NCBI RefSeq assembly: GCF_036588685.1
Contig: NC_086379.1
Coordinates: forward strand, 15,872,001-15,936,000
Length of the DNA: 64,000 nt
Source of the DNA: Mytilus trossulus
Taxonomy: Eukaryota
Direction of reading: 5' to 3'
Of this stretch, positions 7,212 through 58,824 are shown in pieces. Numbering within the stretch: position 1 is the stretch's first letter; each line of letters starts with the position of its first letter. The notes beneath the pieces were generated by a model. That model saw only the letters and a program-made list of their open reading frames with translations, was not told where the DNA came from and did not search any database. The position numbers and the translations under genes were made by a program.

Positions 7212-7472
7212 CTCCCCTTCCGATATTTCTAACTGAAAATCGCTATAAAAAATTAACTCATTTATCTTTAATCACATGATGGTAAATTATTACTTCTATA
7301 GCATGTTAAACTTGAAAAACTAGAGAAAAGATGTGTGATACATTGTTACTCACAATACACATACATTCAAAAAAATGACAATGAATGAACATAAAAAATC
7401 ATACTAAATTTCTCAAAAATCTCACAATGTATCTATAATATAAACCACTTGCAATTGTCGAACTGAAGAGTT

Positions 7473-13184: not shown

Positions 13185-13213
13185 CTTTGCTGTTGCTGTA
13201 TAAGATCTTTTAC

Positions 13214-13791
13214 TGTGATGTTACATGACCCAAAATCAAAGAACACTATAAATTTGGATATGTTTATTCCTCCTTCTACTGAGGGTAAAAGACTACAAAA
13301 AAGAAAATAACACAATGTAAATGACAAGCAAACATGCATGTATCAATCATATGATAAGTCATTTATAACAAACAATCAATATCAAACATAAAAATATTGG
13401 ATGAATAACACCGACTTTATACTAGTAAAATCTTGAAAATAAAACCAACTTTTTACGATTCACACGTTCCATACAGTGAACATTAAAAAATCTGACATGA
13501 CCCATGTGATCAACTCATTTGACGATTCGCACTTTTCATACAGTGATTTGAACAACGTGGTTTGTGTGTGAAATAATTCAAAGCGTATACTTTATAATCA
13601 GTAAAAATACTTATGTAAACTTTATATAACAATAGTTTTAAGATAAATAAATGTAAAGAACTTACTCTATGGCGCTTATAACCAGCAAATATAAGTGTTG
13701 AAAGCAGAACAAATTTGACAGGAAATGCGTCTGACATTACAGAAATACTAATAAAGGAAACAAATCGGAAATCCGTTCCGGTAACATTACA
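13214..13791 (-). repeat. 5' LTR of BEL/Pao element
   Basis: Direct repeat of 6634-7211; minus-strand AATAAA at 13263-13268. Confidence 0.96.
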
Positions 13792-13946
13792 CTGTTAGCT
13801 AGTAGTTACTGCGGTCAGATTCTTGTTATTACACAATATAACAATCAGAGTCATCTGTTATCTCGACTCTCAATGTATGGTACTGGTTGGCGGTAACAAG
13901 TTCCAAAACATTCTTTGTGAAATGAGTGTTTTTGAACTTGTTTAGT

Positions 13947-34665: not shown

Positions 34666-35268
34666 GTAAAAAAATATTGTTAAAAAATATATAAAACTAC
34701 TGATAATTTTTTTTAATCTGATACAATACATATCTCATGTATCTGTAGAACAATTTGATCATGGCAAATAAGCGTAAGACATGTAATTGTATTAACTAGA
34801 GGAAAATAAGAAGAGTTTCTATGATTACATATCACATAGTCCAGGATTCACTTAGAATATCTGTATAGGATAAAAACAACGTAGTAGAATAAGATATTTC
34901 GCTGATATATGACGTAAGACTGTCATCATAATGTGCGCCACAACCTGTAAACCTGTATTAAATGAAAATATTTATTATCCTTTTTTTTTAATGTTACATT
35001 AAATGTGTATATTTATACATTCAATTTGTCTTTAATATTATCTATTTGTGTTTAAGCAGTTACCAAAAGTTGTACATATACGTTACACACGAGACTGAAA
35101 GATACATAATTATACAATGTTTTCACATAAAGAGGTACACAGTTATCATCAAACATTGAAGGCATATTCAATTAATTCCAAATAAAACATGTAAATTTGA
35201 GCGTTTAAACTTTTCTTCTTTTAAAATGTAAGAAAACTTGAAGCACTGTCAGTCTTTTAGCCATCGCT

Positions 35269-36587
35269 TTGCAAGCAGAGCCAAATACAATGATAGTTCC
35301 AACTATGTATTGGCTTCCGAAGCTTCACAAAACCCCTTACAAATATAGATTTATTTCGTCTTCAAGCCATTGTGCAACTACAAAATTGTCTATTCTTCTT
35401 ACCAGCACACTTGATACAATTAAAAACTTTATAATAAATTATTCAAATAAGGCCTTCGAAAATAGTGGAATAAATTACTTTTGGAGTGTCAAGAACTCGT
35501 TGGAAGTACTTGATAAATTGCATGCTTATATTGGTGATTTTGAATCTGTTCAAAGTTTTGATTTTTCTACCCTGTATACCACATTGTCTCAAATTCTCAT
35601 TAAGTAAAAATTCACACACCTAATTAAATGGGCATTCAAAAATCAGAATGTGAATATATATGTTCAAACTCTTTTAGGTCATTTTTTAGTAGCAATAAAC
35701 AAAAAAACTATGTTAATTGGACATGCTTTGATACTATATATGCCCTTGAATTTTTACTTGATAACATTTTTGTTCGCTTTGGGGATTCCGTATATCGTCA
35801 GATTATCGGAATTCCAATGGGGACTCACTGTGCACCACTTATTGCGGACCTCTTTTTGTATTGTTATGAGTTACAATTTATGACAAAAATAAGCAAAGAC
35901 CCATCAAAACTACATCTGATAAACAAATTTAATAATACTTTTAGATATTTGGATGATATTTTGGCTCTCAATAATGACGACTTTAGTATGTATATTAATG
36001 AAATTTATCCTGCTGAACTTACTTTAAATAAAGCTAATACTAACAATGACCACTGCCCTTTCCTCGATCTTGATATCTATATCACTAACGGAAAGCTGAA
36101 TACTAAAATTTATGATAAAAGGGATGATTTTTCATTTCCTATCGTTAATTATCCGTTTTTAGATGGTGACGTTCCCTTGTCACCATCTTACGGTGTTTAT
36201 ATATCTCAACTTGTACGATTCGCTCGTGTATGTAATAATGTTTTAGATTTTAACGAGAGAAATTTATGTATTACTGAAAAATTATTACACCAGGGTTTTC
36301 GATATCACAAACTATTCAAAACATTTACTAAATTTTATCATCGGTATAAAGACATCATTCGTAAATATAGCTCAACATGCAGACTTCTTATACGTTCATA
36401 TTCAATTTTTTATGGAAATATTCTTTATAAAGCACAAAGGTGTCAGTATTCACCTCAGAAACTTACAAAACCTTTGAATAGACTTATTAAAAAGGGATAT
36501 AATAACGATACTGTTGTCAAGTCATTAAAGATTTCATACTTTGGCGTTAATATTGAGTCACTGATAAGGTCTTTGCGTCGGAACTAA
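35269..36587 (+). pseudogene. Penelope-like reverse transcriptase, disrupted
   Basis: ORF pieces 35269-35607 and 35628-36587 are separated by a TAA and a 1-bp frameshift in the A-run near 35640. Confidence 0.88.
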
Positions 36588-36637
36588 ACACATTTATTTT
36601 AAAAACATTTGTTGGCATGAAACGGGTTATTTTCTTC

Positions 36638-36707
36638 TCATTTATGTTATGATGGTATGATACTAAACCCCTAACGGGAAGGATTGTGCCAGATGTTCAT
36701 ATGATGA
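36638..36707 (+). promoter_or_regulatory. SECIS-like (type II) selenocysteine insertion hairpin in the PLE 3' UTR
   Basis: ATGAT core (36649-36653), 11-bp helix II GGTATGATACT/AGGATTGTGCC, AAA (36665-36667), CCC/GGG mini-stem, and GA on the 3' strand (AGAT rather than canonical U/G-GA), closed by a lower helix. Confidence 0.7.
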
Positions 36708-37559
36708 AATCATAATCTTTCAGTCAGTTTAATTGAAGTCTGGAGCTGGCATGTCAGTTAACTGCTAGTAGTATGTTGTTATTTATGTATTATTGTCATT
36801 TTGTTTCTTTTCTTTGGTTACATCTTCTGACATCAGACTCGGACTTCTCTTGAACTGAATTTTTTAATGTGCGTATTGTTATGCGTTTACTTTTCTACAT
36901 TGGTTAGAGGTTTCGGGGGAGGGTTGAGATCTCACAAACATGTTTAACCCCGCCGCATTTTTGCGCCTGTCCCATGTCAGGAGCCTCTGGCCTTTGTTGG
37001 TCTTGTATTATTTTAATTTTAGTTTCTTGTGTACAATTTGGAAATTAGTATGGCGTTCATTATCACTGAACTAGTATATATCTGTTATGGGGCAAGCTGA
37101 AGGACACCTCTGGGTGCGGGAATTTCTCGCTACATTAAAGACCTGTTGGTGACCTTCTGCTGTTGGTTTTTTTTTATTTGGTCGGGTTGTTGTCTCTTTG
37201 ACACATTCCCCATTTCCATTCTCAATTTTATATTACTTTGTTTCTGACACAAAATGGTTAATTTAGGTGCCAAATTTATGTTTTTTAGAAGAAAAATGTA
37301 CCGACGGTGATAGAATTCGAGTTTCAGGTAACATACAGTCTCAAAGTTAGTACCAACAAGTCGAACATTTTTTTTACGTAATCTGTTTTTAAAGCATTTT
37401 CTGGACTAAGCAATAAAAGTAAAAAACAACTTCAAACGTTGTACAATGTTTAACTCTCACCTTCATACATACTCCTTGAACTACGGTGAAGAATGCAATT
37501 GAAATACATTTAATTAGAAAAAAAATAACAATTGCTAATCAATAGGCAGTTCTTAAATT

Positions 37560-38760
37560 GTGAAATGCTTAAAGTTTAGAGAACCCCAACACTTCAATTG
37601 GAATCATAACTTCAAAATGATTATGGACTCCATTGAGGACTATGCCAGAGCACGGGCTAAACGAGATGAAGTAGAACTGGACACTTTGTCAGCATGGGTC
37701 AAAACAATCCGGTCTCTGATTAAACGTTGCATTCATAAGCTGAAAAACTGTGTGAATGGTCGACCGAAATCCGTTTTCAGAGACAAAGAGACTGTGAAAT
37801 GTCTTTCATCTCTTCACGATAAGTATGTTGTTGTTACTGCGGACAAAGCTTCAAATAACATTGTCTTTGTATGTACTACTACGAGTGTCTTGTAAAAGAA
37901 TTAGGTATACACGAACACTCAGGTAATCCCATATACTAAAACATATCATTTGACAAGGATGAGATTTTGGCGAATCATAAGTCCTTCATGGCTTCAATGA
38001 ACATAACCTCGACAAATCGGAGGACTTACCTTGTTTGTATTGGATACTCAAGCTTCATCAAATTCAATACAAACAACGGTACATTGCCGGCTCATCTGCA
38101 TGTTCGACTAAAGAATTGTCAAGTATTTAAAAAAATCTATCCGCAGTGACAGAGGATTTTCAGAAAAACTGTAAAACTGTTTACTCGCGTAGTGGTATTA
38201 ACCATACGTGTATGTGGATTGAAAAAAACCTCTATAGAACTTCTGGATAATTTCAAATCTCGATCATTTTCTGAAATAAGTTCTATCAAAACTTTCGATT
38301 TTTCAACTCTGTATACCACCATTGAAAATTGAAATTGAAAAATCGTCTAAAAGAAATAATCTACATTGATTTTCAACATAACGCTATAAATTTATTACTT
38401 CGGGATACCATACGGCATATTTTGTTAATAGTGAACAAAAAGGTAAACATGCTACACAGAGGAACAAGTGATCAGTATGCTGGAGTTTCTTGTTGACAAC
38501 ATATTTGTTGAATTTGGAGGTAGACTTTTTCAACAAATTGTCGACATTCCTATTGGAACAAACTGTCCGCCTCTCCTTGCCGACCTCTTTTTAATTTCAT
38601 ATGAGTCGGAGTTCCTTCAGACACTTGTCAAAGATCAAAGAAGATAGATCATTTAATTTAAAATTTAGATATATTAATGATGTTCTTTCCATTAACATTC
38701 CAAACTTTTCTGATTGGGTTAATATATCCCCCAGAACTAGAATTTAAAGAAACAAACACG
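37560..38760 (+). pseudogene. Degenerate Penelope-like (Naiad-type) RT of a second subfamily
   Basis: KFREP, ADKASNN, LYWI.KLH, KTFDFSTLYTTI, FLVDNIFVEFGG, IPIGTNCPPLLADLFL, FRYINDVL, with many frameshifts. Confidence 0.85.
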
Positions 38761-40209
38761 GCTTTATCCGTATGACAGTTGTTATTCATTCGTTTGATGT
38801 GTTTGAGCTTTCGATTTTTCGCCTTTTTGGACTAAAGATGCCCTGTCAATACCAGAAATATGACCTAGCTTTAACCCCGTCGCATTTTTGCATCTGTCCT
38901 AAGTCAGGAGCCTCTGTCCTTTGTAAGTCTTGTATGGTTTTTTTTATTTCTAGTTTATTTATGAATAGTTATGGAGTTTAGTCTGACATCAATTTTAACT
39001 AGTACACAGTTAATAGGAAGCTTACTAATCGTAGTGCCCGCAAACGTCGTCTTCAAAACCTACAGGCAATATGGCTGCAAATGTACAAATTATGCAAATC
39101 AAATGATCATAAAAATGTTGCAAGTATAAACATTTACTCACGATAAATGGAAAAAGGGTCAACAAAGACAGATATCAGTGCTGCCTAATACTTCTGAGAA
39201 AACTCATCATATGCCAGAATATACAAAATCTCATGAAAATACTGGCCCTTGTTAAACCAACTACTGTTTCAAAATCTATAACAATCCACCATGTAGTCAA
39301 CCATTGCACATTTTCTCAACACACATTACTTGAGATAATGGAATGTCATTTACTTCCTAGGTAACAACTACAATTATGTTGGAACATTTAACTTTTACCG
39401 CTACTCGACACTGGGTTTCCTTTAAAACCTACCTCATAGAAGAATTCAAACGGCTTTTACCCTTGAACTTTAGTTATTATGAAGCAGATAAATGGTTGAA
39501 AATCTGTTAATGACTAGCGTATCTAAATTTCAAAGTAATACAATTTGATGAATCTATTTGAATATATGTGTGTTTCAAAAAGTAGTGTACAGTTTCAATT
39601 GATGCATTTACATATAAATGTTTAAGTAAATGACCCAGATGTGTCTGAAACATACATATTTGAACTTTTCCTTCCTCTGAAGATGAACAACACATATTTA
39701 ACTTTTTGAGTTTTATTGATGACATATTTTGAATGAACACTGTATCAAAAGGATGTATTTTACGTCGACTTGGATGACCTGACTCATACACAAGAGTGTA
39801 CAAGTTCCTATGATGAAATTAGATATAGGGTAAATATCAATGTCAAGACATCAATTAATTTAATGACAAAACAACAGACATTTAGAGGTCATCATAGATA
39901 CACGCATATTCTTGGTGGCTGTGGGATATTTTATGCTCTTCGCTCGTGTTGTTGTCTCTTCAACACATTCCCCGTTTCCATTCACTATTTAATAGTCTTC
40001 AACACTATACAGATGTTAATAAGAAATGAGATATCTGCCAACAAAGGAAGAGATTCCTTACAGGGGACATGCATACGAGGAAAGTATTGGTCAACCAGGT
40101 CTTAATATATACCTACAAAGGTATTGAATTAGCGAAATCCAAATCAAAGATTTCGGTGATTTTAAAATCAATATAATTAAAAAGATATCTTACTTGGTCT
40201 GATAATGAT

Positions 40210-41825: not shown

Positions 41826-42494
41826 GAGGGTTTAACAAATAACTTTTAATGCATGGATACCAAAAAACTCACTTTATTCCATTGATAGACCAATTTTTGT
41901 AATGATTGAAAAAATAATTGAATGTATTATATATGACTGTTTTATTTTCCATTTTCCCCCATCTAATCCACGGTTGATTAGTTCATTGTGACCATTTTCT
42001 TATAAGCTTTTTAGTGGTATTTATTGTAGTCTAAATCTTTCAATCGTTCTTATTTTCATACCACCATAACACAGAATGAACTTAAATTCCCAGTCTTGAA
42101 AAAGACGGCATGGTTACTTCACAACACGCACAATTTCATATAACCGATGACGGTCACTTGATACTTACAACTGAATATTTGCGCCAAAAAGGACAATAGA
42201 TTGAAAAAATATCAAGTGAATCCAACTAGCTTCTGTTACACAAAAAAGGGTTTTGATATGGTTCTATGTATTGAAAAGTACAAATAATCGCCGTATGTGT
42301 ATATCGAAAATATTGATGCGTGGTTTTGTCACGCATTGTCTTATTTTGAATATTCAAATACGACAATAAGTTTTACAATAATTATTTAAAAAAAACGGTG
42401 TCAATTATGTATTGCATAAATGTCCAGTGATTATTTTCAATTTCTCTGTATTAATTATGACATGATAACATTTTGGATTTGTCTTATGTCAAGT

Positions 42495-45400
42495 TCATCT
42501 TTCATGTAGCCTGATCATCGTTATTTCCGATGATATCTTGGTTTCATTCTTTATGTGTTCAGCTAAATCAAAGTCATTAACTTTTCTGTCAGCTATATCT
42601 ATTTCGTATTTGGATCTATTCAGTCTCTCAAAAATAGCCGGGAGAATTACGACAATAGAACTAGTAACCATAGAAACTCCTGCAAAGTAAAATCCGGATT
42701 GATATGCGCCGAACTTGTCTGTCAAAAATCCTATAAAATAAAATAAAAAAAATCATAAATCGAATAGATACTCGTCGTTTAAAAACTAGAAGATTGTGTA
42801 TATTGATGTCCTGTATCAAAATTAATGTCCATTTCAATCTTTCCATTGTATTTGAGGCTTTACCGAAATCTAGTCGATAACCTAGTACAATATATTACCT
42901 CACAATCAATTGCGGTCACAAAATCTGATGAAAATGTTTTAGGTAGTGTTTTCCTGGTTGTATCGAGTGTTTATATTGTTACTGTTCTTTTATTCTTGGT
43001 CATTAGAGAAAAGTACATTTCCTTGTCTGATTATCTCAGTACTGGAATTTACTAGAAAAATCATTAAACACATTTTAACAGACATTAAGCCTTATTGTCA
43101 ATCAATTCATAAAAGATGTATCATTGTGATGACACTGAAACATACACAGCGCATTGCACGAGGACGAAATTATCCAGTTATTACATCAAGCAAAACCAGT
43201 ACTAAAGAATCAAGCAATAAAAAAAAGAAAACATACTTGAGTCAGTAATGGGTATAAATAGATTAACATGTAAATGCTATTTATATAATATGAGTTGTTT
43301 AGTTTTTTTAATTTGATCTAGATTACATACCTGCCATAGGTGGACCAACGAGGAATCCAAGACCTTGAAATAACAGAGCTATACCACATGAGCTGGCCAG
43401 ATTCTCTATTCCGAGAAGGTCCACTAAAATAACTGGTGGCAACACATTGTATGAGCCGCCAGCAAATAATCCTAAAATACAGGAATATAACACAAAGTGC
43501 CAATATTGGCTGGCAAATACACAACATATGCTAGAAACGCCACTTGTGAAAATAGCAATCACATACAAGTTCTGTCGATTCTTCTTAAAAAACTTAATGT
43601 CACATAAAATTCCAAGCATTATACGTCCAATAATATCCGCTATCCCAGATATAGACAAAAGGATGGCTGCATCCTTCGATCTTATACTGAATTGCATTGC
43701 CAAGGCTGGCAACATAATAGATGCAGGTGAGTGGCCAAGCGTTGCTAACATAAAAGATATACATAAACAAAGAAAGCGATTATTTGTCAGTAATGTGTAA
43801 TCGAAATAATCTTTTACAGTTTTGTTTTTTTCAATAATTGATTGTCGGCACTTTTTATCATTGTTGTCATTGATCAGTTTCTCTGATATAATTGTATTAG
43901 AAATTTCGTTGACTGATTTGTTTTGAATCCTTTCCTGAACAGCAGCCACAGCGAAATCAGTCGATTCATCATTTGTAAATACTTTATTTGAAATCCCTTC
44001 CAAACTAGATACTTTGTGCTTTGCGCTTTTGGGGACAGAAAGAAATAAAGATCCACAGACACACATATTTAACATTACACCGCTCATAACCAGCATTGTT
44101 CCTTGGAAACCGTATTTCCTCAGGAGAAATTCCAAAAGTGGTGCAAAAATAAAAGTCCCTACTCCTGACCCAGCTGTTGCAAGACCGTTAACGAGTGATC
44201 TTCTTTTATCAAACCATCTCCCTACTATTATAATACTTGAGATGTTTGCCAATGACTTTCCAATACCTAATCAAACATATATGATATATTGCATTAAAAT
44301 GACAAAAGTATGCTAGCTGAACCAGGTTCAAAGCAAAGATAGTTGTTTTCGCATATTCATTTATAAAAACGTATAATCCTTGAAAGAAATAGCACTTGTA
44401 TTTTGTAATTCTGCAGAAAAAAATCTATCTGATGTTAGTTGTTTTGGATTAAGCTTTGTAAAAGTCGTTTCTTTTTTGTACATCGAATCTTTTGATGTCT
44501 TCGTTTTGACAAACGTGACAATATCAACTATCTTATTTTAAATTTCTGATGTATCAAGCAAGAACATATCTATTGCACTATCGTATGGTGTTAAGAATGT
44601 TGTTGCGCGAAGATTATGTACAAAGCACATAAAACCTAATGGCATATTTTTATCGCACATTCACTCCACAATTTTTATATCCATACTTAATTACAAAGAA
44701 TAATATTTTTTAAAACGAGATTATATACGATTCCAATGAAATTTTCAGATTATTTTTTTTTAACGATTTACCTGTTTATTTGGAAAAGGAAACGCATTTT
44801 TCAGAACGATAACTTTATCTTGTAAAGTACATTCATATTTACGGATGCTTCATGCAATGATAGCCAAGTTTAATCCCAAAACAAATCGGTGTATACAATA
44901 TGTGGACAATGAAGTGTAGATCTGGAACAATTAAACTGTGCGGAAATGAACAAATAATATCAAAATAATGCTATAATATCAAACAGATCAAAGATGAGAT
45001 GGACAAATCTATGTTTGTAAACATTGTAAATGAAGGCAAAGTCCTTCAACCTTTTTTTGGACAGTACCATTAAAGACATAAATAATCAAACAGAAATTGT
45101 GAATAAATAGAACTCGAAGCTAGAAACATGTGCTATGAAATGCACCAACATCGTTCTAAAAGGATATAATTATGACCATAAGTACAGATCATGAGAGTCA
45201 AACGTATATCAAATTTGAAACATAACAGTAACAATACATTCTATCATTCTTAAACATTGTTCTGAGTGTGGGCCTTTTATACGAAGAACTTTTAATTTAA
45301 AGACTGTTTCTTTTATCTGATATAAAAAAAAATAAACTTGCGATGAATACATACATGTAAATATCAAGATGTAAATACGTTAATCCCACATATCTACTTA

Positions 45401-48089
45401 TATGCACTGATCATGGGTTTTTAAGCTTTTCCATTAAACACGTACATTTGACGTAACCACCACTAAATAATACACATTTTGTATCATGTGTATCATGCAC
45501 ATTGTGTGTAACATAAAGAACCTTAAAGTATAAATGATGGGTGTGGGTAATTTCTAACTGAGACTTTTAAGTTTGACACGTGGGCATAGTCTTTCTTCAA
45601 CACTATACCATACGAAAGTGTTCAACATCCAATTAAAGAAAATATAAGAAATTGAACTGAAATATCACGCAACTGCCAATGAAATAAACCTTACTGATTT
45701 AAAGAGTTATATTCTAAGTTCTAAGAACAAAAAGTACTATTACAATTTGAAATTACCTGCTACAAGGCCGTAAGTTAAAAACATATACTCTATTTTAGGC
45801 ATAAATCCTGTGGTGAGCCAACCAATAGACGTAAACACCCCTCCGACTACAGTCATTGAGCGACAGGAAAACCTTGTGCTCAACGCACTTGAGAGTGGAC
45901 CTGAAAAGTATAATTTTATTTGTTAACGGTATTGCGAAATAAGAATCGTTCATTTTGATGAATTTCACTTTTTGAATATATTTCTGTTTTCAATAAAGTT
46001 TAAATATTTCGAATAGAATATATACATATTAAAGCTTTAGGAAAATGTTGTTTGTGCTGTTTTTAGACACTTCTACTACGAAATTTGTTTTACATGCACA
46101 CGTATAAACATTGTGGTTTTTATCCAACGCAATCATAGGTTTGAACGTAGTTTTCAATTTAGACTCGATTATAAAAGTAATATATATATATATTGACAAT
46201 CGTATGATAAATAAAAAAAAATAGAATAAACTGTTCTTTTTCAATTTATATAATACAGAACTAATCTTACTGAAAATTAAGGCCATTGCGTTAGCCACGG
46301 AACCAACCCAAGCTGTTTTACTTGCATTCTCGTGGAATAATTCCAATAATTCAACGTATAATACACCAAATGTGTTTACAGCACCTCCGATTAGAAGGTG
46401 AATTATCACTGCACCTGTAAACCAAATAAATGTGTATAAATTTATGAATACACAACTATTATGTATAGATGTAACAGTTGTAAATCATATTTGAATTTGT
46501 AAGTAGACCGTTTGTTTTCCCGTTTGAATGGTTTTACACGTCCAGTAATTTTTGGGACCCTTTATAGCTTGCTGTTCGGTGTGAGCCAAGGCTCCGTGTT
46601 GAAGACCGTAAGTTGAGCTATAATGGTTTACTTTTACAAATTATGACTTGGATTGAGAGTTGTCCCATTGGCACTCATTCCACATCTTGTTATATCTATC
46701 CATCAGTTTCCTGTTTTTATTTTGGCAGGTTTACATTATAACTCTAGTTAAAAAAAGTATTGATTTTTATTATGTTTCTTACACAGAACATACATGTATT
46801 CGATAGTCATTCATTGTATTCTAGAAACGAATTTATTTGCGTAAAAAAAGTAGGTCAGTGTAACTGGCACTTTATTCATTAACTTCGATACCAAAACAAA
46901 CTTAACGTGACGGTACCCAAATTGCACCTATTTTGACAGTTTTTTCACCTACGGTTTTTTATGATCAAGACAAACATTCTATTCTGTGTTTATTTTGTAG
47001 CCGTATAGTTCTTGATAATATAGGTACACCAATTTGATTTTTAATCCATTGCATCCATGCTTAAATTCACACCATTAAAAATCAAATAACAGATATTTTT
47101 TTTTTTTTTTCAAATATTTAGAACAATTTGACTTTAGTACAAACTCACTATTCATTTTTTTCTAAATTGATGTTTGTGACATTTTTTTTTGTTCATTTTT
47201 AAAAGATGACTTTTTGTGAACGTCGCATGGTGGCGTTTACGTAAGTTTTTCTTTTCCAGTGAAAGTTTCATCTGTTGATATAAATTGTGAACGTTTAGTG
47301 TATATTTGAATATTTTAACCTATTTTGTAAGACGTGTATATTGTCCAATAATCCAAATACAAATTGTTTAGTCTCAAAGAAAAAAATTAAGAGTTTCTCA
47401 GCTGTTTATGTTCAATAGATGCAATTTGGGTACTCGGTGCAATTTGGGTACCGTGAAGTTATACACCAACTTCTTTGTTGTTCTCAAACAGCTTGTTAAG
47501 CCAGATGTTGAAAACGTTTATTCAATTTGATGTCACTGACATTTTTTTTTATGCTGCCACTTTATGCTGTTACGATTGTCAGAATTCATTGGCCGTATAC
47601 ACTTTGTCGTTAGAAAAAGCCTTGTTTGTGACGTTGAAATCATAACGCACATATTAATCTATGACGTCATTAATGAATGCAGGTTCGCGGAACTTTAGAG
47701 TCGTTCTTTCTAAATTCATTGTTATTGATTTTAATCCAAAATGGTTCATTCAAAACATTCCAAGAGATGCAGTATAAATGGAACAACCATAGTTGTCTCA
47801 AAATAATACATTGTAGTTGTACTAGTTTCTAATTGGATATAGAAATGCCTCGCAAAGCCTCACATTCTATCTGTTTCTTAGTCTTGTACAAGTCCATTTA
47901 TATATTGAGTCAAAATATAGTTATTCTAAAGTATTTTATTATTTCGATTTAAAATATTCAACTTATATATATTAATTGTAAATAAATATTCTTACCCACT
48001 ACTACAATCCATCCCCAACCTCCATCAGGAGCTTGTACGTCGTGATTTGCATCGTTATCTTCATCTTTCTTTTCAAAAGGTTTGGACAT
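42495..48089 (-). CDS. SLC16/MCT-family monocarboxylate transporter (MFS), about 517 aa
   Basis: Exons 48089-47996, 46414-46271, 45900-45757, 44266-43331 and 42730-42495; all introns GT-AG and phase 1; total 1554 nt. Motifs PDGGWGW, WFDKRRSLVNGLATAGSGVG, GIADIIGR, GPPMAG. Confidence 0.92.
46905..47459. mobile_element. TA-flanked MITE in MCT intron 1
   Basis: TIR ACGTGACGGTACCCAAATTGCACC / GGTGCAATTTGGGTACCGTGAAGT; TA on both sides. Confidence 0.8.
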
Positions 48090-49365
48090 CACTCTGAAAG
48101 TTGTTTTAGCATGTATAACTATATTCAGCTGTTCTCGTGTTTTAGAATGTACAAGGAGCAATGGAAAATCTATTGACCGAGAACAATAGAACATTTAACT
48201 CTTATGAAAAAGTCGTGAAAATCAAATCAGTAATGCTGGTGATGATAGAGGCTAAAAGTTATTTCTAAACAGCATTGAATTTCGTACATTTAAAAGAAAT
48301 AATTTATCAAACTGTTTCTTTAGAAAATCATGTCTAAACAACATCTAAAGATCTTTCCGTTCAACAATTTTCGGAGTTTTCCACAAAGTACATTGCATGT
48401 TACAATTTTCACAAAATGTACCTCTTTCACATCTAAGTGTTCGAGTTCACCAGTTTGTCGGGTGAACGTTCAATATAGAAATATTGGTTTTCCGTGAATA
48501 ATACAGTTTAAAAGTCTGTCATTGCAGGTTAAACAAAATAGAAATGAATATTTTCATTAAATAGGTTATCCGTCCAAATTTTAAGAGAAAGTCGTCTTGT
48601 TTTTTTTTTGTACATATATTTGCGGTCTTCTCTATCAATTTCCATGCAATGTTTACATAAGGATAAGGACCGTTTTAATTTCATTGATATATTCACTTCA
48701 AAAGTATTAAATCTGTAATCTAGCTGCATACATGTACTGATAATTTGCAAGTTCTAGAGAAGTATACAGAGAGTAGAAAAAATATTTTGAAGTTGGTACT
48801 CCAGGATTATTTTCGCATAGCAATATTTTACACCAATTTTGTACCAAGCTCGTCGTTTGTTATTTATAGTAAATGAGAACATTAAATGGAAGTTTTATTT
48901 TTCCCTTTCTGAATTTAATTTTATTTTCACTATTAACAGAACTTTTATTCGTTAACTTATAATTGGTTTCAAGTTTTCAGTGTTTTCAATGATAACCTGA
49001 ATAGGGAACCTGTCAAGCGGTATTATATGGTTTTTATAATTTTATGCATCCTGCCAATTCGGTCATTCGTAATGTTCTTGTCTATCGTATTTGCTTGTGT
49101 GCTTTATGTTTTGAGTGTTTATATGCATTTTTTTTATATTTGTTTTGTTGACATATTTGTTACTTTTGTATTGATTAAGATTATAAAACAATGTTTACTG
49201 CTGTACCCCAATATTTGACATTTTTACCTTTTATGACTGTTTGTTTTGATCACACATCGTTATCAATATAATGGTATTTTATGGGACTGTCATACATGTG
49301 AGATGTTTCGTTAGCTATAAAGCTAGGCTTAATCCTCCATTTTCTACATAGGAGATGCCTGTTCC

Positions 49366-49755
49366 AATAGTTATCAAAGTACCAGGATTATATCTTAATA
49401 CGCCAGACGCGCGTTTCGTCTACATAAGACTCATCAGTGACGCTCAGATCAAAACAATTAAAAAGCCAAACAAATACAAAGTTGAAGAGCATTGAGGACC
49501 CAAAATTCCAAAAAGTTGTGCCAAGTACGGCTAAGGTAATCTACTCCTGGGCGTAAGAAAATCCTTAGATTTTCGAAAAATTCAAAGTTTTGTAAACAGA
49601 AAATTTATAAAAATGACCATATAATTGATATTCATGTCAACACCGAAGTGCTGACTACTGGGCTGGTGGTACCCTCGGGGACGAAACGTCCACCAGCAGT
49701 GGCATCGACCCAGTGGTGTAAATAGTTATCAAAGTACCAGGATTATATTTTAATA
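49366..49755 (-). mobile_element. Retrozyme: 355-bp unit plus a terminal partial repeat, with an intact type I hammerhead
   Basis: AATAGTTATCAAAGTACCAGGATTATAT occurs at 49366 and again at 49721 (period 355). Non-coding. Confidence 0.9.
49400..49443 (-). ncRNA. Type I hammerhead ribozyme (intact)
   Basis: Minus strand GCGTCA-CTGATGA-GTCT(tatgt)AGAC-GAAA-CGCGCG-TC^TGGCGT; predicted cleavage between 49406 and 49405; palindromic minimal stem III. Confidence 0.9.
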
Positions 49756-50082
49756 ATCCAAATACAAATTGTTTAGTCTCAAAGAAAACTTTTAGGAATT
49801 TCTCAGCTGTTTTTGTTCAATAGATGCAATTTAGGTACTCGGTGCAATTTGAATACCGTGACGTTATACACCAACTTCTTTGTTGTTCTCAAACAGCTTG
49901 TTAAGCCAGATGTTGAAAACTTTTATTCAATTTGATGTCTCTGACATTTTTTTTTATGCTGCCACTTTATGCTGTTACGATTGTCAGAATTCATTGACCG
50001 TATACACTTTGTCGTTAGAAAAAGCCTTGTTTGTGACGTTGAAATCTTAACGTACATTTTAATCTATGACGTCATTAATGAA
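49752..50082. repeat. 331-bp duplicate of MCT intron 1 segment 47347-47677
   Basis: Colinear, about 16 substitutions counted by eye. It includes the right end of the intronic MITE and that MITE's unique flank. Confidence 0.9.
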
Positions 50083-50468
50083 AGTCAGGAATACGACAGT
50101 TGCTTTCCATTCGTTTGATGTGTTTGAGGTTTTGGTTTTGCCATTTGATAAGGGACTTTCTGTATTTAATTTCCCTTGGAGTGCAGTATTTTTTTATTTC
50201 ACTTTTTTTTTAACACAACGTCTATATATTCCAACACCATTCATTATTGAAATATGTATGAAACATTAGATGCGATTCAAATTACCTTTGATTTTTATTT
50301 TTCTTTGCTTTTGTTAACAAGTTAAATTTCTAGTATTATTTAAAATTTGTAACTTGTTTACAAGGCAGGATCGTGGATTCACGCATATGAGTAAAACATT
50401 TTCTCGTCCCTGCCTTATGAATCAGTTGTGTGATGTATTTACATATGAAAATATATGAGCTATAAACC

Positions 50469-50913
50469 TAGAATCATATTCAAAACAGTGTGGTCCTGGC
50501 CATTGATTGACGAAATAAATTATCACATTGACTGGGACAGATTAGGTGAACGTTTGTCGGTAACAATCACTGCTCACTATGTACTTGTTAAAGACACTGA
50601 ATCTGTGGGGTCACCAAAGGTTCTCAACACCTAAATAAAGCAATTCGAAAAACGAATCCGGAATAATACTATGTGTTGATTTATATTAATAATATAAATC
50701 AAAACATAAAGGTTATTCCTGAATAATTTTTCGAATTATTTTATTATTAAAGGCGGTAAGAACCTTTGGTGACCCCACAGTTTAAATTCTATAATAAGTA
50801 AGAAGTGAGCAATGGTCGTTACAGACAAACGTTCACCTAATCTGTCCCAGTCAATGGGATAATTTAGGTCGTCAATCAATGGCCAGGACCATACTGTTTT
50901 GAATATGATTCTA
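50469..50913. mobile_element. Foldback MITE with about 170-bp imperfect TIRs and TAG...CTA ends
   Basis: TAGAATCATATTCAAAACAGT...GGGGTCACCAAAGGTTCT is mirrored by AGAACCTTTGGTGACCCC...ACTGTTTTGAATATGATTCTA. No clear TSD. Confidence 0.85.
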
Positions 50914-52890
50914 TTTATACAATAAGGCTCATGACTTTTTGTATTAGTTTTTTCGAAAGATTTGTTTGTTAAAACAGTCGCATTACCATAAAACCCATGT
51001 TGTTGTGTGTGTTCTTGATGTTTAAATTTCGTATTATAACATTTTCGTTCTTGGTGTTTCAACGGGGATGTGACTCTCCAGACAGGTGTAATTTTACATT
51101 TCTCATTCTATATTTTTCAGCCTTTGTACGAAACAATTTAAGTAATTTGTATGTAATATTTGCTTCAAATAAATGACCGTTAAAAAAAGAGAGACGAATA
51201 TACCAAAGGGACAGTCAAACTCATAAATCTAAAACAAACTGACAACGCCAAGGCTAAAAATTAAAAAGAAAAACAGAAAAACAATAGTACACACGACACA
51301 ACATAGAAAACTAAAGAATAAACAACACGAACCCCATCAAAAACTAGGGGTGATCGCAGGTGCTCCGGAAGGGTAGTTAACGTTGATCTCTCTGCAGTCA
51401 AAGTGGTAAACTAATACGTTATACTCAGTGTCACCACGGAAAATTGTATCTGGCCATTCTTCTAGCACAATTATGTAAATTTTTACTATCGCTATCATAT
51501 AATTGTAAATCCTAATCAAATTCTGCATAGTGTTCTTTTAATAGTAACAGTGCGAATGAAATATATTAAAGATATAACGAGACAGCAACAATAACAACCA
51601 AAAAAAAAACTAAAGTTTTAGTCTGAACGATCAATCCACTCATCAATAATTGCATTTTAGTATAACAAAAGTACAAAACAAATTAATGTATGTCAATTGT
51701 CAATTGATTAATCCATAGCAAGCTGTCATATGTCCATTTATTTTCTAAATACTGATATATTTTCAAACATATCAATTTATTTATATATTAAACATGTTAA
51801 ATGAATGTATTATATTTAGTTTGTATGTACATAACACATATAATATGAATAAAAATAAAAATAAAAGTTATACACACAAAACAATACACTTTAAGTTATT
51901 TTTTTAAATGTTAACATTGATATGAAATATTAAATGTTCATATAGTTATGAACCTAAATATTGTTCTTTATCATATATAATTATCTAAAATTTAATTCCA
52001 GGCAGAACCACAACCACATAAAATTGTTACAATGATTATCCTTATTAAGTGTACGAATTCCCGTTTCGTCTGACATCTAGACATTCATTGTTAAGTTCTT
52101 TAGTGCAGACAAGTTTTCATTAGTGACTATGTGTCTCAAATAGACGACTTATAATACATATTTAACTTGTTTCAAAAAATGTTCACATGTTTCACATCAT
52201 TATAATCTGCACTTATGTTTTAATAAGAACCACAATGAATGATTGATCCAGGACTTGTGTAATAGGACTTTCCACCTTTTGCAATTCAACAATATACATT
52301 TAGATGCTAGAGATCGTATTACCCAATGTCGACATTCCCACGAATTATTTACGTACTTATATCAAATAACTTTAAAACGTTGATTAAAATGCAAATTTAT
52401 CGAATCAACAAACACAAAAAAGTGTACAAAAAGATACATGTTTTTTTTTTAAGATTTGTCTTGACTTAATAATTTTCAACTAGCTAAACTTGCTCAACTG
52501 TTTTAAATTCACGACAACTTTCTTTTGCTTAAATGGGAAGGTGCTAATAATATTTATTTTACTATATGCAATTTTGTTATATTATCCATTCATTTCATTG
52601 GACACGTGCTATTTGTTAAGTTTCACTAACCCTTCATACGCACCACCCAACCATAGCAACATGTGATATTATTTTCAACGGGTGTTAATGCCTAAAATTA
52701 ACTTCGGTATTTTAAACAAATTTCTTAAACGTCTGCAATTTTTTTGAATTGAGGTACTCGTTTGATATGTCTTAGACCTTTTGCAATCAGTCCACAATTT
52801 TCAAAAACAAAACTTTTAAATAACATTATACTCTAGTTGCAAGACTGTGTATGGCATATGTTGTTCGATTTTTAAATTTGGTCTTTCAAT

Positions 52891-55472
52891 TTACATGTCA
52901 TCAATGTTCAAGATTGGTGTAAATATCTCCTCGAGCACATTTTCTATCTCTCTGCTCTGTATGGACTGTAGGATCTTTCTTAGCCAGGAATCGATGCCAT
53001 GTTGTCCACAATAAAAGGGAATATTGAGGTATTTTCGTATAAAGTTGTACATTTTCATTGTGCCTGGAATAAGATAGTACAATATTTAAGAGAATGTATC
53101 GAAGAATGTATGAGATGACTATTTCTGTCGCAATATCATATCGAACATATTGAAATTTTACGACAGACCTAGATCATTTAAATAGAATTTGAACGGTAAT
53201 GTGTAACAATTAAATTTGAGTATTAATTCTAATGTTTAGCCCACTTCTGGGTAAGTCTTCAAAAAGTTAGCTTAGTATTAAAAAATTTAGAAAAATATCA
53301 AATTTGACTGGAAAATATTTAAAATGTTTAAATAAATTGATAACAACAACCTTTTTGACACCGCCACATTTTCACGTGCCTTTTCCATTCTCGTCAGTAT
53401 TTGTCGTATGTCAAATTTTTTTTTTTCCGTTTTTTAGATATATGGGTTTTGATAGCAGTATACTAATGTTTTGGTTTAATTAATTTTAACTTTTTAAGAC
53501 TCGGTACGATTTAGAGTGTTACAAATAAAAAAACACACCTGTGATTGTTGGAGACTGCATGTTCGCTTTTAATGTATTTGGCTTATTTTTGTCGCTTGGT
53601 TGCTGTTCCATAATTGACGCTTATCCCATATCTACTTTTAATCATATTAATGCTGTCTATTCATGTGAATTTCACCATTAATTTTAGTTTATCATTTTTA
53701 ATAATAGAGAGGCTTTTATCTCCCCATCGTTATGATTTTATATAAGACAATATAAATGTTTATAATCTACCTTTTCCCATCTGTTTGGCGGCATCTATAT
53801 TTCCATTACATGCATTTTTGTAAAGGGTACACATTCTATTTGAGAGACGTTCCCCAGCTTCTGTGTGTTCTTTTCCTGATAGGAAATTTGTCTCCTTCGA
53901 AGCCTTTTGTTTAGATAAAAACAGCAAGTCATACCATTCTATCTCCTTTAAAGTCGACGTAATGTCGAGATATTCTTGCGCAAGTAAGTCAATTTCTTTA
54001 AGAACGAGATTTCGGAGGTGACGTAGATCGATGGCCTGTGCAGTCAGAAGAAGTAGGTTTGCTGTCATCATTTGTACAATTTCAACTGCCTCTGAGGTGA
54101 ATCGCGCGGAGACTAAAGCCATTGAATTGATTGCCTGGTTGTGGCATTCTGCACTCAATATATGATTACTCATAGGGTTGACAAAATGATCGAGTTCAGA
54201 CATGTAAGAGGTCATTGCTATATCACAGCCTTTGAATCCGAAATCAACATTGATGTCACATCCACTTAGATTCGGTGGCAATCCGAAATTCAGCTTATCA
54301 TTTACAACCTCTTCGAATAGAGCAAATTGTAGCTTCCCGCAAATTCCAAGCGCTTGTCGTGTTTGGTCCATTGCGATAGACATAGTTTCTCCCTGGAAAT
54401 TAGCGTTATGTAAAACTGTATCTGTGCGATGGTCAATTAGTGGATTATCATTTGCGCTGTTAAGTTCAATTGTTATTCTTCTGCATGCTTCGTTAAGTGT
54501 TTCAACAGCTGGTCCAAGCCATTGTGGTGAACTCCGCACACTATAACGATCTTCCTTAAGAACTCCACATTTGTCTGGCAGGTTCATGTCTAATGTCGTG
54601 ATAGCTAACTTACTACCTTCTAGAATTGACAACATATTCCTTGCTATTTCTTTCTGACCTATATGAGGAAGACAGTTGTGGATAAGAGGATGGAAGCTCT
54701 CTGTTCTTCCTTTCACTGCTTCAATTGACAGTCCGGTACATACTTGGGTAAGAAGAAGAAGCAAATTTGCGTCATAAAGTGTTGGAGCCGAGAACCCGGC
54801 AGTGAATGAACATGAATTTATTACCCCTAAGCCTTCCTTTGGGCCAAATACAATCGGTGATATACCAGCCTCTGCAAGAGCTTGTGGACAAGACATTATT
54901 TTCCCTCCTTTAAACACTTTCATATCTTCTCTTCCTATCATGGTTGCTGCAATATAACCTAGAGGCATCAGATCTCCGCTAGCACTAACAGATCCACGCA
55001 GTGGAACTTCGGGCACAATATCGTTATTGATAAGATCAGTCAGAGTTGTGACCACTTCAGCACGTACTCCAGAATATGCTTTTGCAAGACAATTTGCCCT
55101 CGTTACCATTGCAGCCCTAATCATTTCTAAAGGAAACATTCGACCCATTCCAACATTTACAAGACGGATCAACGCCATCTGCACATCTTCAAATTTACAC
55201 GAACGCACGTCGGAACTTCCACCGAAGCCTGTGTTTATCCCATACAAAACAAGTCCTTTTTCTAACTTCTTTTTTAGATACACTGCATTTGCTGTTAACT
55301 CTTCCATGGATATTTCAGCAATTTTTACTTTCATGCTTGGCTCAATGCTGACTGCAAGGACTTCTGGTATGGTTAAAGTAGTTCCATCGAGCGTGATACT
55401 GTCTAACGTGTTTTTCCTTTTTTGGATGAATGTTAAAGTTGTTCTTGCATGAGAATTATCCATTTCTGTCAT
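52891..55472 (-). CDS. MIO-dependent aromatic amino-acid ammonia-lyase/aminomutase of PAL/TAL/PAM type, about 624 aa
   Basis: Coding exons 55472-53771 and 53063-52891 (phase-1 GT-AG intron; 1875 nt including stop). Motifs YGINTGFGG (catalytic Tyr), PLRGSVSASGDL (ASG/MIO, 54975-54983), KEGL..IN, DRYSVRSSPQWLGP, NDNPLID, NFQG, GFKGCDIAM, SAECHNQAINS, and C-terminal MYNFIR..L.I. A splice acceptor at 55491-55492 with an in-frame stop before the ATG suggests a 5' UTR intron. Confidence 0.93.
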
Positions 55473-56179
55473 TTTCCCAAATTAAAGAACCTGCGTTATG
55501 GATAGATTATTTTACATGTTTTACATCATACGAAAAAAACTATGTCTTTTTAATAAGATAGAAACATGAATTACAAATACAGTATTAATTCCGTTAAAAA
55601 TAATACAGAGGCTTCTTTCTTAGTAATGCCTAAGAACTATAAAAAATTAATTCATTTGTTTGGTATAATAGTAGTTCTACGTTTGTAGTTAACGTTTGAA
55701 ACGTTTTCAAACATTAAAAATGATTTATCGACAGCCCCGATAATATTATATGATAATTTTGAGTGCCTTTTGAGACCTTCGCAAAATATCCATCCTAGTC
55801 TGACTTCAGACATTAACATACAAACAAAACATTACACTCGAAATCTCAAAATGTCCACGAATTAGAAAGTAATTGAGATTGATTTAAAAAATACTATAAA
55901 AGGTCTACCATTTATAACTAAAGCCAAACATAGACGATACTCTTGGTTTTGGACAGACCGTCATAAGAATATGTGACATGCCTATACTACTTACCCCTAC
56001 CCGCCCTGTTGACCTCACCACCCCATCCTCACTTGTAATAATGATCAGAGTATAAGAATAGGTAAATAAAATATTGTTATATTCTATTACATTTGCATGA
56101 TGTCGTTCCAAATAAGCCACTTTACGTTAAACATCTGTCCATCTTTCCATCGCATTTATTACAGAAGGATATTTAATAA

Positions 56180-57174
56180 AGGCAGTTGCTTTTTTGCCGG
56201 CTCCGGCAAAATAGCAATTTATATAGAGTTTTGCTATTTTTCCGGTCTTAGTTCAGATTTTTAATCAAGACTATATGAAATTTTTTTTTTAAGGAAACTA
56301 TTTATGCACAAATGATATATGTGGCTAGATGTCAATACTAGTAACCTTTTTGTTCGCCTTGCGTTCCTAGTCATTCAATTTTAGTTAACTGCACCCATTT
56401 AATTACATCTACTGTGTTTTTGTTAGATGTATGTTAAGCCTTTTTCAACTGATTTTTATAGTTCGTTCTTATGTTGTACTGTTATACCACTGTCCCAGAT
56501 TAGGGGAGAGAGGTGTGGATCCCGCTATAACATTGATATACATTTTTCGTACATAAATAAGGCCGTTAATTTTCTCGTTTGAATTGTTTTACATTGTCAT
56601 TTCCGGGCCTTTTATAGCTGATTATGCGGTATGGGCTTTGTTCATTGTTGAAGGCCGTACGGTGACCTATAGTTGTTAATTGATGTGTCATTTTGGTCTC
56701 TTGTGAAGAGTTGTATCATTGGCATTCATACCACATCTTCTTTTTTTATATGAGATTGTTGGGTGTTACTTTTTGTTTCAAATCTTATATATTATTTTTT
56801 TTTTGTTTTAATCAGAATGTCGATTTTTTTATATGGGTCCGTATGCTTTGCTTATGCGTATTATATATTTTTATAAAGAATTTTTTGTATACCTCCTATT
56901 AAAGATAAAAAGAACTAGTATCAATTTCAATATTTTACTTTTTAAAAAAGACATATTTTTAGAGACTAAAGAATATCAATTTTAATTTGCACGTTTGGTA
57001 TAAATGTTTAAAGAATACTTAGTTGTAGAGCGATTTCTTATTGAAGTGTATGTTTCTATATTTTTTCTTTTCTTAATTTCTATACTTCTATTTTAATCTT
57101 AACTAAGACTGGCAAAATAGCATAACACTATATAAATCGCTATTTTGCCGGAGCCGGCAAAATAGCCACTGCCT
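56180..57174. mobile_element. MITE with about 75-bp TIRs and TAA TSD (PIF/Harbinger-like) carrying nested repeats
   Basis: AGGCAGTTGCTTTTTTGCCGGCTCCGGCAAAATAGC... / ...GCTATTTTGCCGGAGCCGGCAAAATAGCCACTGCCT; TAA at 56177-56179 and 57175-57177. Confidence 0.8.
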
Positions 57175-58824
57175 TAATGAAAACAAACTATCTAGCTTTC
57201 GATAGAAGAAATCGGGTATCTTACACAGAGCAGTTGATCAATTATATATAGTTTTTATGTTTTGTGCAGCAGTTGATTTTATGGATTAAAAATGTATGCA
57301 ATATAATATGAAATAAAAGACACACGGATGAAATGTCAAAGTATAAGAAAATTGATTTTAATTTAACAGCAAAGCAAATAACTGAAATATTGCTTCTTTC
57401 TTTTTTTTAAGGCACAATTAACAGGTAAACTGCGAAAGCAATCAACTGACTTAAATTGTGATGATTCGAATTTTGTTATAATTTTGCCAACATGTAGTTG
57501 TTGTTTCTGATCAGAAAATTATTTTCAGTGAACTATGAAATAAATATACAGATCAGGGGTTGTCGTTTGTTGATGTGGTTCATAAGTGTTTCTCGTTTTT
57601 TTATATAGATTAGAGCGTTGGTTTTCCTGTTTGAATGGTTTTACACTAGTCATTTTTGGGGTCATTTATAGTTTGCTGTTCGGCGTGAGACAAGGCGCCG
57701 TGTTGAAGACTGTACTTTGACCTATTATGGTTTACTTTTTACTAATTGTGACTTTGATGGAGAGTTGTCTCATTGGCACTCATACCACATCTTCTTATAT
57801 CTAAATACTGAATTTCATTTCCAAAAATACAAAATCCGGTAAATGCTAACTACACAGACCTTATGTTTTAATAACGGTGCAAACTTTTATTAAGACTTGG
57901 ATAAGCTTCAACTGTCCTTCGAAGTTCGTTTTGTATCCATAATTAGTTAGGATTACTATTTTCTATTACACTACAAAAAAAATAGCAAACAGACATTTAC
58001 CTATTTGATTAATCGTCCTTTTTGTTTACCTATGAAAGTCGTTTCCAATTCCTTTTTTTAAGTTTTGAAACTTACAAAAAATATACTAAATGGACATGCA
58101 CAAAAATAAATCATTCCGGAATTATAAACAACAGACGTAGAAATGGGAGGTTTAGCTAGCTATAAGACAAAGTTTAACACACAATGCTCTGAATTTCCAC
58201 TTGTTCCGTTGGTTAATAATGCTTGATTTGCCTGTTATTATGGACTTTCTCTTTTTGAATTTACCTTGGAGCTCGGTATTTATGTCATATTTTTTCCATT
58301 CGGTTTTTCCTTGATAGGATTTATGATTCTTTAAGATATAAACCAGCAAGTGATTGGCTAGTCCTATAGAACGAAATGTGATCTTCTTCTTGTATATTTA
58401 TTCCTTTGCTGTTATGAATAGTAAAAGGACACAACAAAACATCGTTTAAGATATATCTAACAATATAACTGCTGAGATTTTAACTATATGTTTTCTGTAA
58501 ACAAACCGGAACCAATTTAACTGCACCAGATGCACATTTCTTAAGTGATTCTCGAGACCAAAATATATTAAAATTCATAACTTGTAAAAATATTTAAGAG
58601 CTGACCAAGACAAAATATGTAGCCGAAGCCGGGCAAGGAATCAGAGTTTTGCATTAGGGAGATGTTTCCCTGTATTTTTTGAATTATCTAAATATCCAAA
58701 TGAAATTAATTCATCTCAACTAAATCTAACTACATTCAAAGTCAATAGGGACCGTTGTCTATTTTAAACATTCATGTTTGAATCTCACAATCGTCATGCC
58801 AAATTTAATGACAAACTGGGCGAC

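Follow-up and report, generated by a model that had tools for sequence, protein, structure and literature searches.

A PAL/TAL-type lyase gene and an SLC16 transporter gene in tandem in Mytilus trossulus: a candidate aromatic-acid module of the bivalve mantle

A lyase gene and a transporter gene in tandem

In a 64,000-nucleotide stretch of the Mytilus trossulus genome (NC_086379.1, positions 15,872,001 to 15,936,000 of the forward strand; the whole stretch is called the window here), two intact genes follow one another on the minus strand: upstream a gene for a lyase of the phenylalanine/tyrosine ammonia-lyase (PAL/TAL) type, and downstream a gene for a transporter of the SLC16 family, with 4,801 bp between the stop codon of the first and the ATG of the second. 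A sequence-only reading of this DNA had described a PAL-like gene and an intact SLC16 gene as adjacent, co-oriented and about 4.8 kb apart, which the gene models bear out. The pair is real, probably ancient and expressed in the mantle. As to its function, we lean, with modest confidence, towards an old module of the bivalve mantle: the lyase would deaminate phenylalanine or tyrosine, and the SLC16 protein would export the cinnamic-type acid so formed.

Both gene models were built from splice signals in the AT-rich animal DNA that makes up the whole region (Table 1). The lyase gene has two exons joined across a GT-AG intron, and encodes 624 amino acids that are 99% identical to a record from M. 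galloprovincialis. The SLC16 gene has five exons and four introns, all GT-AG and all in phase 1; its spliced product of 517 amino acids is 100% identical to the M. trossulus database record P0121, whose name, ‘MCT12-like’, is a best-hit label only. Neither coding sequence contains an internal stop.

No further gene is evident between the two, as had been claimed from the sequence alone. The spacer and flanks hold 178 stop-free frames of at least 48 amino acids, 80 of them with a GC content of at least 33%, and none of the 60 of these 80 that were scanned matched a Pfam domain, including all 17 spacer frames in that GC class. Because the scan was limited to frames of this length and composition, short or AT-rich exons in the spacer are still possible.

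Linkage in other bivalves

Adjacency in one genome is weak evidence for a module. SLC16 and SLC5 ‘monocarboxylate transporter’ descriptions fill 78 rows out of at least 16,507 in the accessible parts of two Mya tables (PMC11978232), which puts the chance of such a neighbour at about 1% per gene, and higher if any plausible partner counts. The earlier caution that the adjacency might be fortuitous applies to a single genome; what strengthens the case is the evidence from other species.

Within Mytilus, a 762-amino-acid gene model from another Mytilus-clade assembly (P0050) runs from the second half of a lyase (89% identical) into an SLC16 protein, in the same order as in the window, and both halves group with the window's copies. 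Exon 2 of the lyase and exon 2 of SLC16 are both missing from it, which is what a chimeric gene prediction would look like, and we reject a true lyase-transporter fusion. Mytilus also carries one more lyase (P0004) and one more SLC16 gene of the same clade (P0122), and all four genes lie on one 85.4-Mb sequence. The two duplications have the same tree shape and, over 60 bootstraps, similar relative depths: 0.40 (0.31–0.49) for SLC16 and 0.41 (0.30–0.56) for the lyase. One 83.6-Mb sequence of Mya carries four lyase models together with two models of the SLC16 clade.

A case from a distant relative comes from the zebra mussel, Dreissena, where the available part of a supplement (PMC9210306) gives the PAL gene the locus number DPMN_079236 and the SLC16 gene DPMN_079228, eight apart. 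The latter equals P0125 in length and in the 400 residues shown, and P0125 falls in the clade of the window's SLC16 protein with support of 1.0. As the Dreissena numbers reach at least 149,447, a gap of eight would arise by chance in about 1e-4 of such pairs; paralogues, moreover, bear close numbers in the supplement table, as positional numbering gives. Funannotate, the pipeline of the Dreissena study, numbers genes by position, and Mytilus and Dreissena parted about 480–500 million years ago. If the numbering does follow position, it suggests that the Dreissena pair lies within roughly 100 kb or less. BIRC6 models numbered beside 149350 were considered as SLC16 neighbours in Dreissena and rejected, since the paper numbers the same protein 079228 and its numbering differs from that of the database.

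The linkage that the sequence-only reading had proposed to test across species recurs in P0050, on one Mya chromosome and in the Dreissena numbers. The linkage is likely to be old; outside the window, it is seen indirectly, through a fused model, a shared chromosome and locus numbers.

Expression in the mantle

The same supplement, in its available part, places both Dreissena genes in the mantle. Mean counts per million in foot, gill and mantle are 0.17, 15 and 254.75 for the PAL gene, which is of the His type described below (tau 0.970), and 3.25, 2.5 and 63.9 for the SLC16 gene (tau 0.955) (PMC9210306). Motif searches of the supplement gave a single row for PAL and a single row for SLC16, each of them within the mantle-specific list, which comprises 359 of 68,018 genes (0.5%); in the lists searched, neither P0018, another Dreissena PAL, nor P0127, the second Dreissena SLC16 protein, was found. 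Tyrosinases are among the Dreissena mantle genes, and the words ‘ammonia’, ‘lyase’ and ‘monocarboxylate’ do not occur in the portion of the main text available (PMC9210306). Neither the PAL gene nor the two flanking numbers were found in the readable files of the Mya differential-expression tables (PMC11978232), and the accessible supplements of PMC10663159 and PMC10639161 gave no matches.

For Mytilus, four RNA runs of unstated tissue (X1, X16, X19, X22) were aligned to positions 42300–55700. X1 yielded short lyase contigs at a depth of 3–11, one of which stops at the acceptor-like site 5' of the lyase and another of which is likely to derive from a paralogue. Parts of lyase exon 1 appeared in 15 RNA runs, mostly as a small share, and were counted as no evidence. 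As to the co-expression that had been proposed as a check, both Dreissena genes are mantle-specific across three tissues; the four Mytilus runs were too sparse to speak to it.

Linkage and shared expression of this kind could also be non-metabolic: the two genes may have stayed together through slow rearrangement or a common mantle enhancer, the SLC16 protein carrying an acid outside the pathway, for example lactate or a ketone body. In keeping with this, many lineages and copies have a lyase for which no partner was retrieved, SLC16 genes are numerous, the window holds no third pathway gene, and joint expression of neighbours needs no common substrate. Passive drift, however, would not predict close numbers across so old a split together with joint membership of a mantle-specific list of 0.5% of genes, and the SLC16 protein is without the lactate-site Lys and the bulky pocket residues of MCT1. 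We regard this explanation as unlikely, while taking it seriously.

The lyase: family, predicted specificity and origin

Judged by its sequence, the window's enzyme is a PAL/TAL-type lyase dependent on the methylidene-imidazolone (MIO) cofactor, and not a histidase (HAL). It keeps the features expected of a PF00221 enzyme, that is, the MIO triad Ala164-Ser165-Gly166, the inner-loop Tyr77, and Asn219, Tyr310, Arg313, Glu442 and Asn445-Gln446. In the PDB it matches best the Taxus aminomutase (PAM) and the PALs of plants and fungi (E 1e-113 to 1e-95), with HAL at about 1e-51; a structure model (pLDDT 91) has the helical-bundle PAL/HAL fold and superposes on parsley PAL and Taxus PAM with TM of 0.83–0.88; and ESM Atlas returned only the PAL name. 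Against the NCBIfam PAL profile (TIGR01226, cut-off 519.15) the exon-1 product scores 519.0, the paralogue P0004 533.5 and the Mya protein P0013 512.4. A histidase was rejected on two counts: the HutH profile gives 298 bits where the cut-off is 539, and the selectivity pair is Leu104-Val105 where HAL has Ser-His. Mya has a separate histidase gene.

The enzyme might instead be an aminomutase making beta-phenylalanine or beta-tyrosine, with the SLC16 protein moving that product or a derivative, and lyases and mutases are not reliably separable from sequence. Taxus PAM and its variants do head the PDB matches (382 bits, with parsley PAL at 370), and in the fold comparison PAM chains are likewise among the leading matches of the model. 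The profiles, on the other hand, order the alternatives as PAL (519), Taxus-type mutase (383) and tyrosine mutase (245), and the animal enzymes adjoin fungal PALs and TALs in trees, so that we hold a mutase to be very improbable.

Substrate preference is commonly read from the selectivity site, where His points to tyrosine (TAL or PTAL) and Phe to phenylalanine, although exceptions exist. Among the 77 animal-clade rows with a residue at this site, 48 have His, 20 Leu and four Phe; by this rule the family would mainly accept tyrosine. The window copy, with Leu104, does not have the TAL/PTAL His, and its substrate has probably shifted towards phenylalanine. Compared with its Mytilus paralogues, the window's lyase (53869–55472) lacks the selectivity His and the window's SLC16 protein (42495–44266) has an additional Gly in helix 10, next to the pocket; a joint change of substrate is possible. 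The fused model P0050 shares the extra Gly and does not include the region of the lyase selectivity site.

The species names borne by relatives of the lyase are those of four Mytilus species, Mya, Dreissena, Pinctada, Ruditapes, Mactra, Lingula, Owenia, Ridgeia, Lamellibrachia, Dimorphilus and Helobdella. Among the best 120 matches per search, of which many were nameless, none was named as an oyster, a scallop, a gastropod or a cephalopod. The bivalve, brachiopod and annelid lyases form one clade (SH-aLRT 99.4 with 38 rows, 0.999 with 146 rows) that adjoins fungal PALs and TALs on a short branch (91.2), a position that fits inherited and anciently transferred origins alike. In 51 of the 82 clade proteins, similarity to the spliced lyase breaks off at the very residue of the intron; it runs on in 21, and the remaining 10 are too short to tell. 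As this one intron is common to bivalve and annelid branches, the lyase is an old nuclear gene, and we rejected contamination or recent transfer on the same ground. A His-Val copy from Pinctada made it unnecessary to assume transfer between bivalves.

Several other proteins resemble the family. Five unnamed fusions (P0359, P0362, P0363, P0365, P0435) carry an AMP-binding CoA-ligase domain and one or two PAL domains; on the animal profile they outscore plant and fungal PALs, and their C-terminus is similarly short. They fall outside the animal clade, and the trees give no support to descent from them. A 286-residue PAL-like fragment of the rotifer Adineta vaga (P0296, 40% identical) is possibly a separate acquisition. 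Two near-identical lyase copies on the 85.4-Mb sequence that carries the window's proteins look damaged, P0001 having the MIO-motif segment three times and P0242 being truncated and out of frame at its end, so the family appears to turn over. In metagenome and prokaryote contigs (2 of 64 parts scanned) the relatives were 29–37% identical only, which has no bearing on origin or linkage.

The transporter and its pocket

The SLC16 protein is an MFS carrier with the N-terminal SLC16 motif and the helix-8 Arg, and its nearest solved relatives are MCT2, MCT10, MCT1 and MCT8 (E 5e-53 to 2e-36); its best NCBIfam model is TIGR00892, at 278 bits and thus below the cut-off of 586. Relatives were searched for among proteins of 419–1334 amino acids. 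Nine of the best 120 matches, from Mytilus, Mercenaria, Dreissena and Mya, scored 302–1060 bits, the next 248, and these nine form one bivalve clade with support of 1.0.

MCT10/TAT1 carries aromatic amino acids. In the accessible part of one study, N119 of MCT8 corresponds to MCT1 K38 and D424 to MCT1 F367, the Y339/D424 pair is exclusive to MCT8/10, and D309 of MCT1, which drives proton coupling, is replaced by Ser in MCT8 (PMC12078798). Mapped through PDB alignments, the window's protein has Asn45, Ser310, Asp338, Arg342 and Ala396 at the sites concerned. Asp338 and Arg342 match the proton-coupling pair Asp309/Arg313 of MCT1; both are present in all nine clade members, Asp338 being found in nine of the 111 other SLC16 matches. 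In the lactate pocket, Asn45 and Ala396 stand in place of Lys38 and Phe367, and small residues in place of bulky ones. His306-Ser307 is typical of the clade, His306 occurring in eight of nine members and in none of the others. The residues point to a carrier that couples to protons and has a roomy pocket, and away from both a lactate carrier and a copy of TAT1; its substrate cannot be read from the sequence.

The module might also face inwards, the SLC16 protein importing phenylalanine, tyrosine or DOPA to feed the lyase, as the sequence-only reading had allowed with MCT10/TAT1 in mind. Asn45 aligns with MCT8 Asn119 and would give an amino group space at the position of MCT1 Lys38, the predicted pocket is roomy, and linkage and co-expression fit import equally well. 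Yet Asn45, present in just five of the six clade members that cover the site, is the only one of the distinguishing residues in common with MCT8/10; Ser310/Ala396 stand where those carriers have their exclusive Tyr339/Asp424 pair, and all nine clade members keep the Asp that couples protons in MCT1 and is a Ser in MCT8. Import is accordingly disfavoured, and we think it improbable.

The proposed module and what weighs against it

In the export module that we favour, the lyase would form its MIO cofactor in mantle cells; the His-bearing majority of lyases would convert tyrosine to p-coumarate, and the Leu-bearing Mytilus copy phenylalanine to cinnamate, or another non-phenolic aromatic substrate. 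The SLC16 protein would then export the cinnamic-type acid together with a proton. Beyond the cell, we can only speculate that the acid or a derivative might help to tan, pigment or defend the organic shell coat, with mantle tyrosinases perhaps oxidising it to quinones that tan the periostracum, or with the acid acting as a precursor of defence compounds or pigment. Such roles would be in keeping with the mantle as the tissue and with the shelled and tube-building animals in which the lyase occurs. A wider version, which we put forward tentatively and which may well not hold, is that the lyase is a phenylpropanoid entry step of bivalves, brachiopods and annelids that predates the split of these phyla, and that in bivalves it belongs to a conserved mantle cluster (lyase, exporter and perhaps an aryl-CoA ligase) secreting coumarate or cinnamate for tyrosinase-driven tanning or chemical defence of the periostracum; this would be an animal counterpart of the phenolic wall chemistry of plants.

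A metabolic gene cluster, as usually defined in plants, comprises at least three non-homologous genes of one pathway, and the window holds two. Enzyme and transporter are indeed adjacent, as the earlier description of a ‘mini metabolic cluster’ had it; ‘cluster’ overstates the case, there being no tailoring gene in the window. The available part of table S4 of a Mya study (PMC11978232) lists a 2-succinylbenzoate-CoA ligase-like gene, LOC128239207, numbered five below the PAL gene LOC128239212, with unrelated genes between them; on these gene numbers, which are not coordinates, it is a possible third pathway gene.

A number of observations weigh against the export module. As to the pathway, no tailoring enzyme was found in the window by the frame scan or by tblastn with three acyl-CoA ligase domains, neighbouring genes can have a common tissue without a common pathway, cinnamic acids can also cross membranes undissociated, and Asn45 recalls the amino-acid carriers MCT8/10. 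As to linkage, the intervals of the Mytilus duplication depths are wide; for an older Mytilus lyase group (P0006/P0012, depth about 0.7) no partner was retrieved; and the shared Mya chromosome is expected from the general conservation of bivalve chromosomes. Mercenaria has the SLC16 gene (P0124) and no named PAL among the lyase matches listed, while Pinctada, Ruditapes, Mactra, Lingula and the annelids have the lyase and the length-limited search retrieved no SLC16 protein of the clade from them. The Dreissena linkage consists, in the part of the supplement available, of locus numbers and not coordinates, with seven intervening numbers unseen, and the expression data there cover three tissues only. 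The Dreissena lyase P0018 and the SLC16 genes of that species are on different chromosomes; the PAL numbered close to SLC16 is a second copy, which differs from P0018 at 15 of the first 107 residues (by eye, in the part shown). In the Mytilus RNA runs, finally, depth over repeat-free coding bins was near zero in X16 and X22 and below 2 in X19, none of the joints listed was a splice joint of the lyase or the SLC16 gene, and X1 had no contig on most of SLC16 exon 4, which means little at such depth.

To our knowledge, PAL/TAL chemistry is usually credited to plants and fungi and treated as absent from animals. The lyase gene already stands in databases, where some of the animal records bear automatic ‘PAL’ names; the clade, the linkage and the mantle expression were not found described, and our literature search, outside which most subscription papers fell, found no paper on PAL in bivalves or annelids or on a lyase-SLC16 pair. 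The finding is of an intron-bearing nuclear PAL/TAL-type family across three animal phyla, accompanied in bivalves by a dedicated-looking transporter in shell-forming tissue, and it opens an old question to direct test, namely which small aromatic compounds serve to tan, colour and protect the periostracum. If the export module is real, it would offer a candidate substrate for an invertebrate SLC16 protein and a very old example to add to the few metabolic gene modules known from animals.

Other features of the window

Acceptor-like sites precede both start codons (Table 1). The one 5' of the lyase ATG probably marks an intron in the 5' untranslated region; one contig from run X1 aligns as far as 55492 and then continues with 21 letters that are absent from the window. 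The site 5' of the SLC16 ATG implies that the promoter of that gene is probably further upstream. Part of the spacer is probably 3' untranslated region of the lyase gene. Dispersed repeats lie in the spacer at about 49366–49760 and 51200–51375, and a palindromic element resembling a miniature inverted-repeat transposable element at 50461–50919.

Table 1. Features of the lyase-SLC16 locus (positions in the window).
Feature	Position	Strand	Basis
Splice-acceptor-like site directly 5' of lyase ATG	55473..55492	-	Sequence; run X1 contig
Lyase exon 1 (residues 1-568)	53771..55472	-	Pfam PF00221 E 3.6e-136; best PDB matches PAL/PAM
Lyase phase-1 intron, common across the animal clade	53064..53770	-	GT-AG ends; similarity break in relatives
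Lyase exon 2 with stop codon	52891..53063	-	In frame; C-termini of spliced relatives P0004, P0013, P0019 match
Spacer	48090..52890	.	4,801 bp; dispersed repeats, palindromic element
SLC16 exon 1 (N-terminus, start of first helix)	47996..48089	-	Gene model
SLC16 exon 2 (Asn45 = MCT1 Lys38 / MCT8 Asn119 site)	46271..46414	-	Gene model, alignment
SLC16 exon 3	45757..45900	-	Gene model
SLC16 exon 4 (His306, Ser307, Ser310, Asp338, Arg342, Ala396)	43331..44266	-	PF07690 E 8e-29
SLC16 exon 5 with stop codon	42495..42730	-	Gene model

Upstream of the lyase gene, inverted arms of 88 bp stand about 0.9 kb apart (56172–57182). The downstream neighbour of the SLC16 gene is a probable single-pass membrane protein with exons scattered over about 21795–31210 on the minus strand, among them a signal-like exon (about 31106–31210), a Cys-rich exon (about 27186–27260) and a tail exon (21795–22244) with a diverged duplicate at 20850–21278; the pieces scanned had no Pfam match. 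Broken reverse-transcriptase-like frames at 35242–38800 look, from their translation, like a non-long-terminal-repeat (non-LTR) element, again with no Pfam match in the pieces scanned. A BEL/Pao-type LTR retrotransposon (6634–13793) has an open frame of 1,915 codons and 580-bp terminal repeats that are 99.8% alike, which points to a recent insertion.

Comparison with known systems

The window's lyase shares with the plant and fungal PAL, PTAL and TAL enzymes and Taxus PAM (1w27, 6f6t, 6at7, 1y2m, 3nz4, 4c5r) the MIO triad, the catalytic Tyr and the Arg, Asn, Glu and Gln residues, as well as the fold (TM 0.83–0.88, at 30–37% identity), and its score on the NCBIfam PAL profile is at or near the cut-off. 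Unlike the plant and fungal PALs, the animal lyases form a clade of their own, are about 620 rather than about 710 amino acids long, have their own intron, and mostly carry His at the selectivity site (48/77; Leu in the window copy); and the window's gene is linked to a transporter and not, as far as seen, to C4H or 4CL. The SLC16 protein, set beside the human carriers, has a hybrid site: it has the helix-8 Arg of these carriers, shares the helix-8 Asp with MCT1/2 without their Lys38 and Phe367, shares the helix-1 Asn with MCT8/10 without their Tyr/Asp pair, and adds the His306-Ser307 of its bivalve clade.

Among gene modules, the bacterial pairings of PAL or TAL with an aryl-CoA ligase (EncP/EncH type) likewise begin the route to a cinnamate-derived product with the lyase, and ligase-lyase fusions score high on the animal profile; the window, however, has no ligase, and the fusions group outside the animal clade. 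Animal biosynthetic gene clusters are known from the terpene clusters of octocorals (Scesa, Lin and Schmidt 2022, as cited in the accessible part of PMC12250223). The bivalve pair resembles these in that linked genes of specialised metabolism would be encoded in the animal genome itself; it differs in pairing a single enzyme with a single transporter, no tailoring enzyme being seen in the window, and in its predicted chemistry, which is that of aromatic acids rather than of terpenes.

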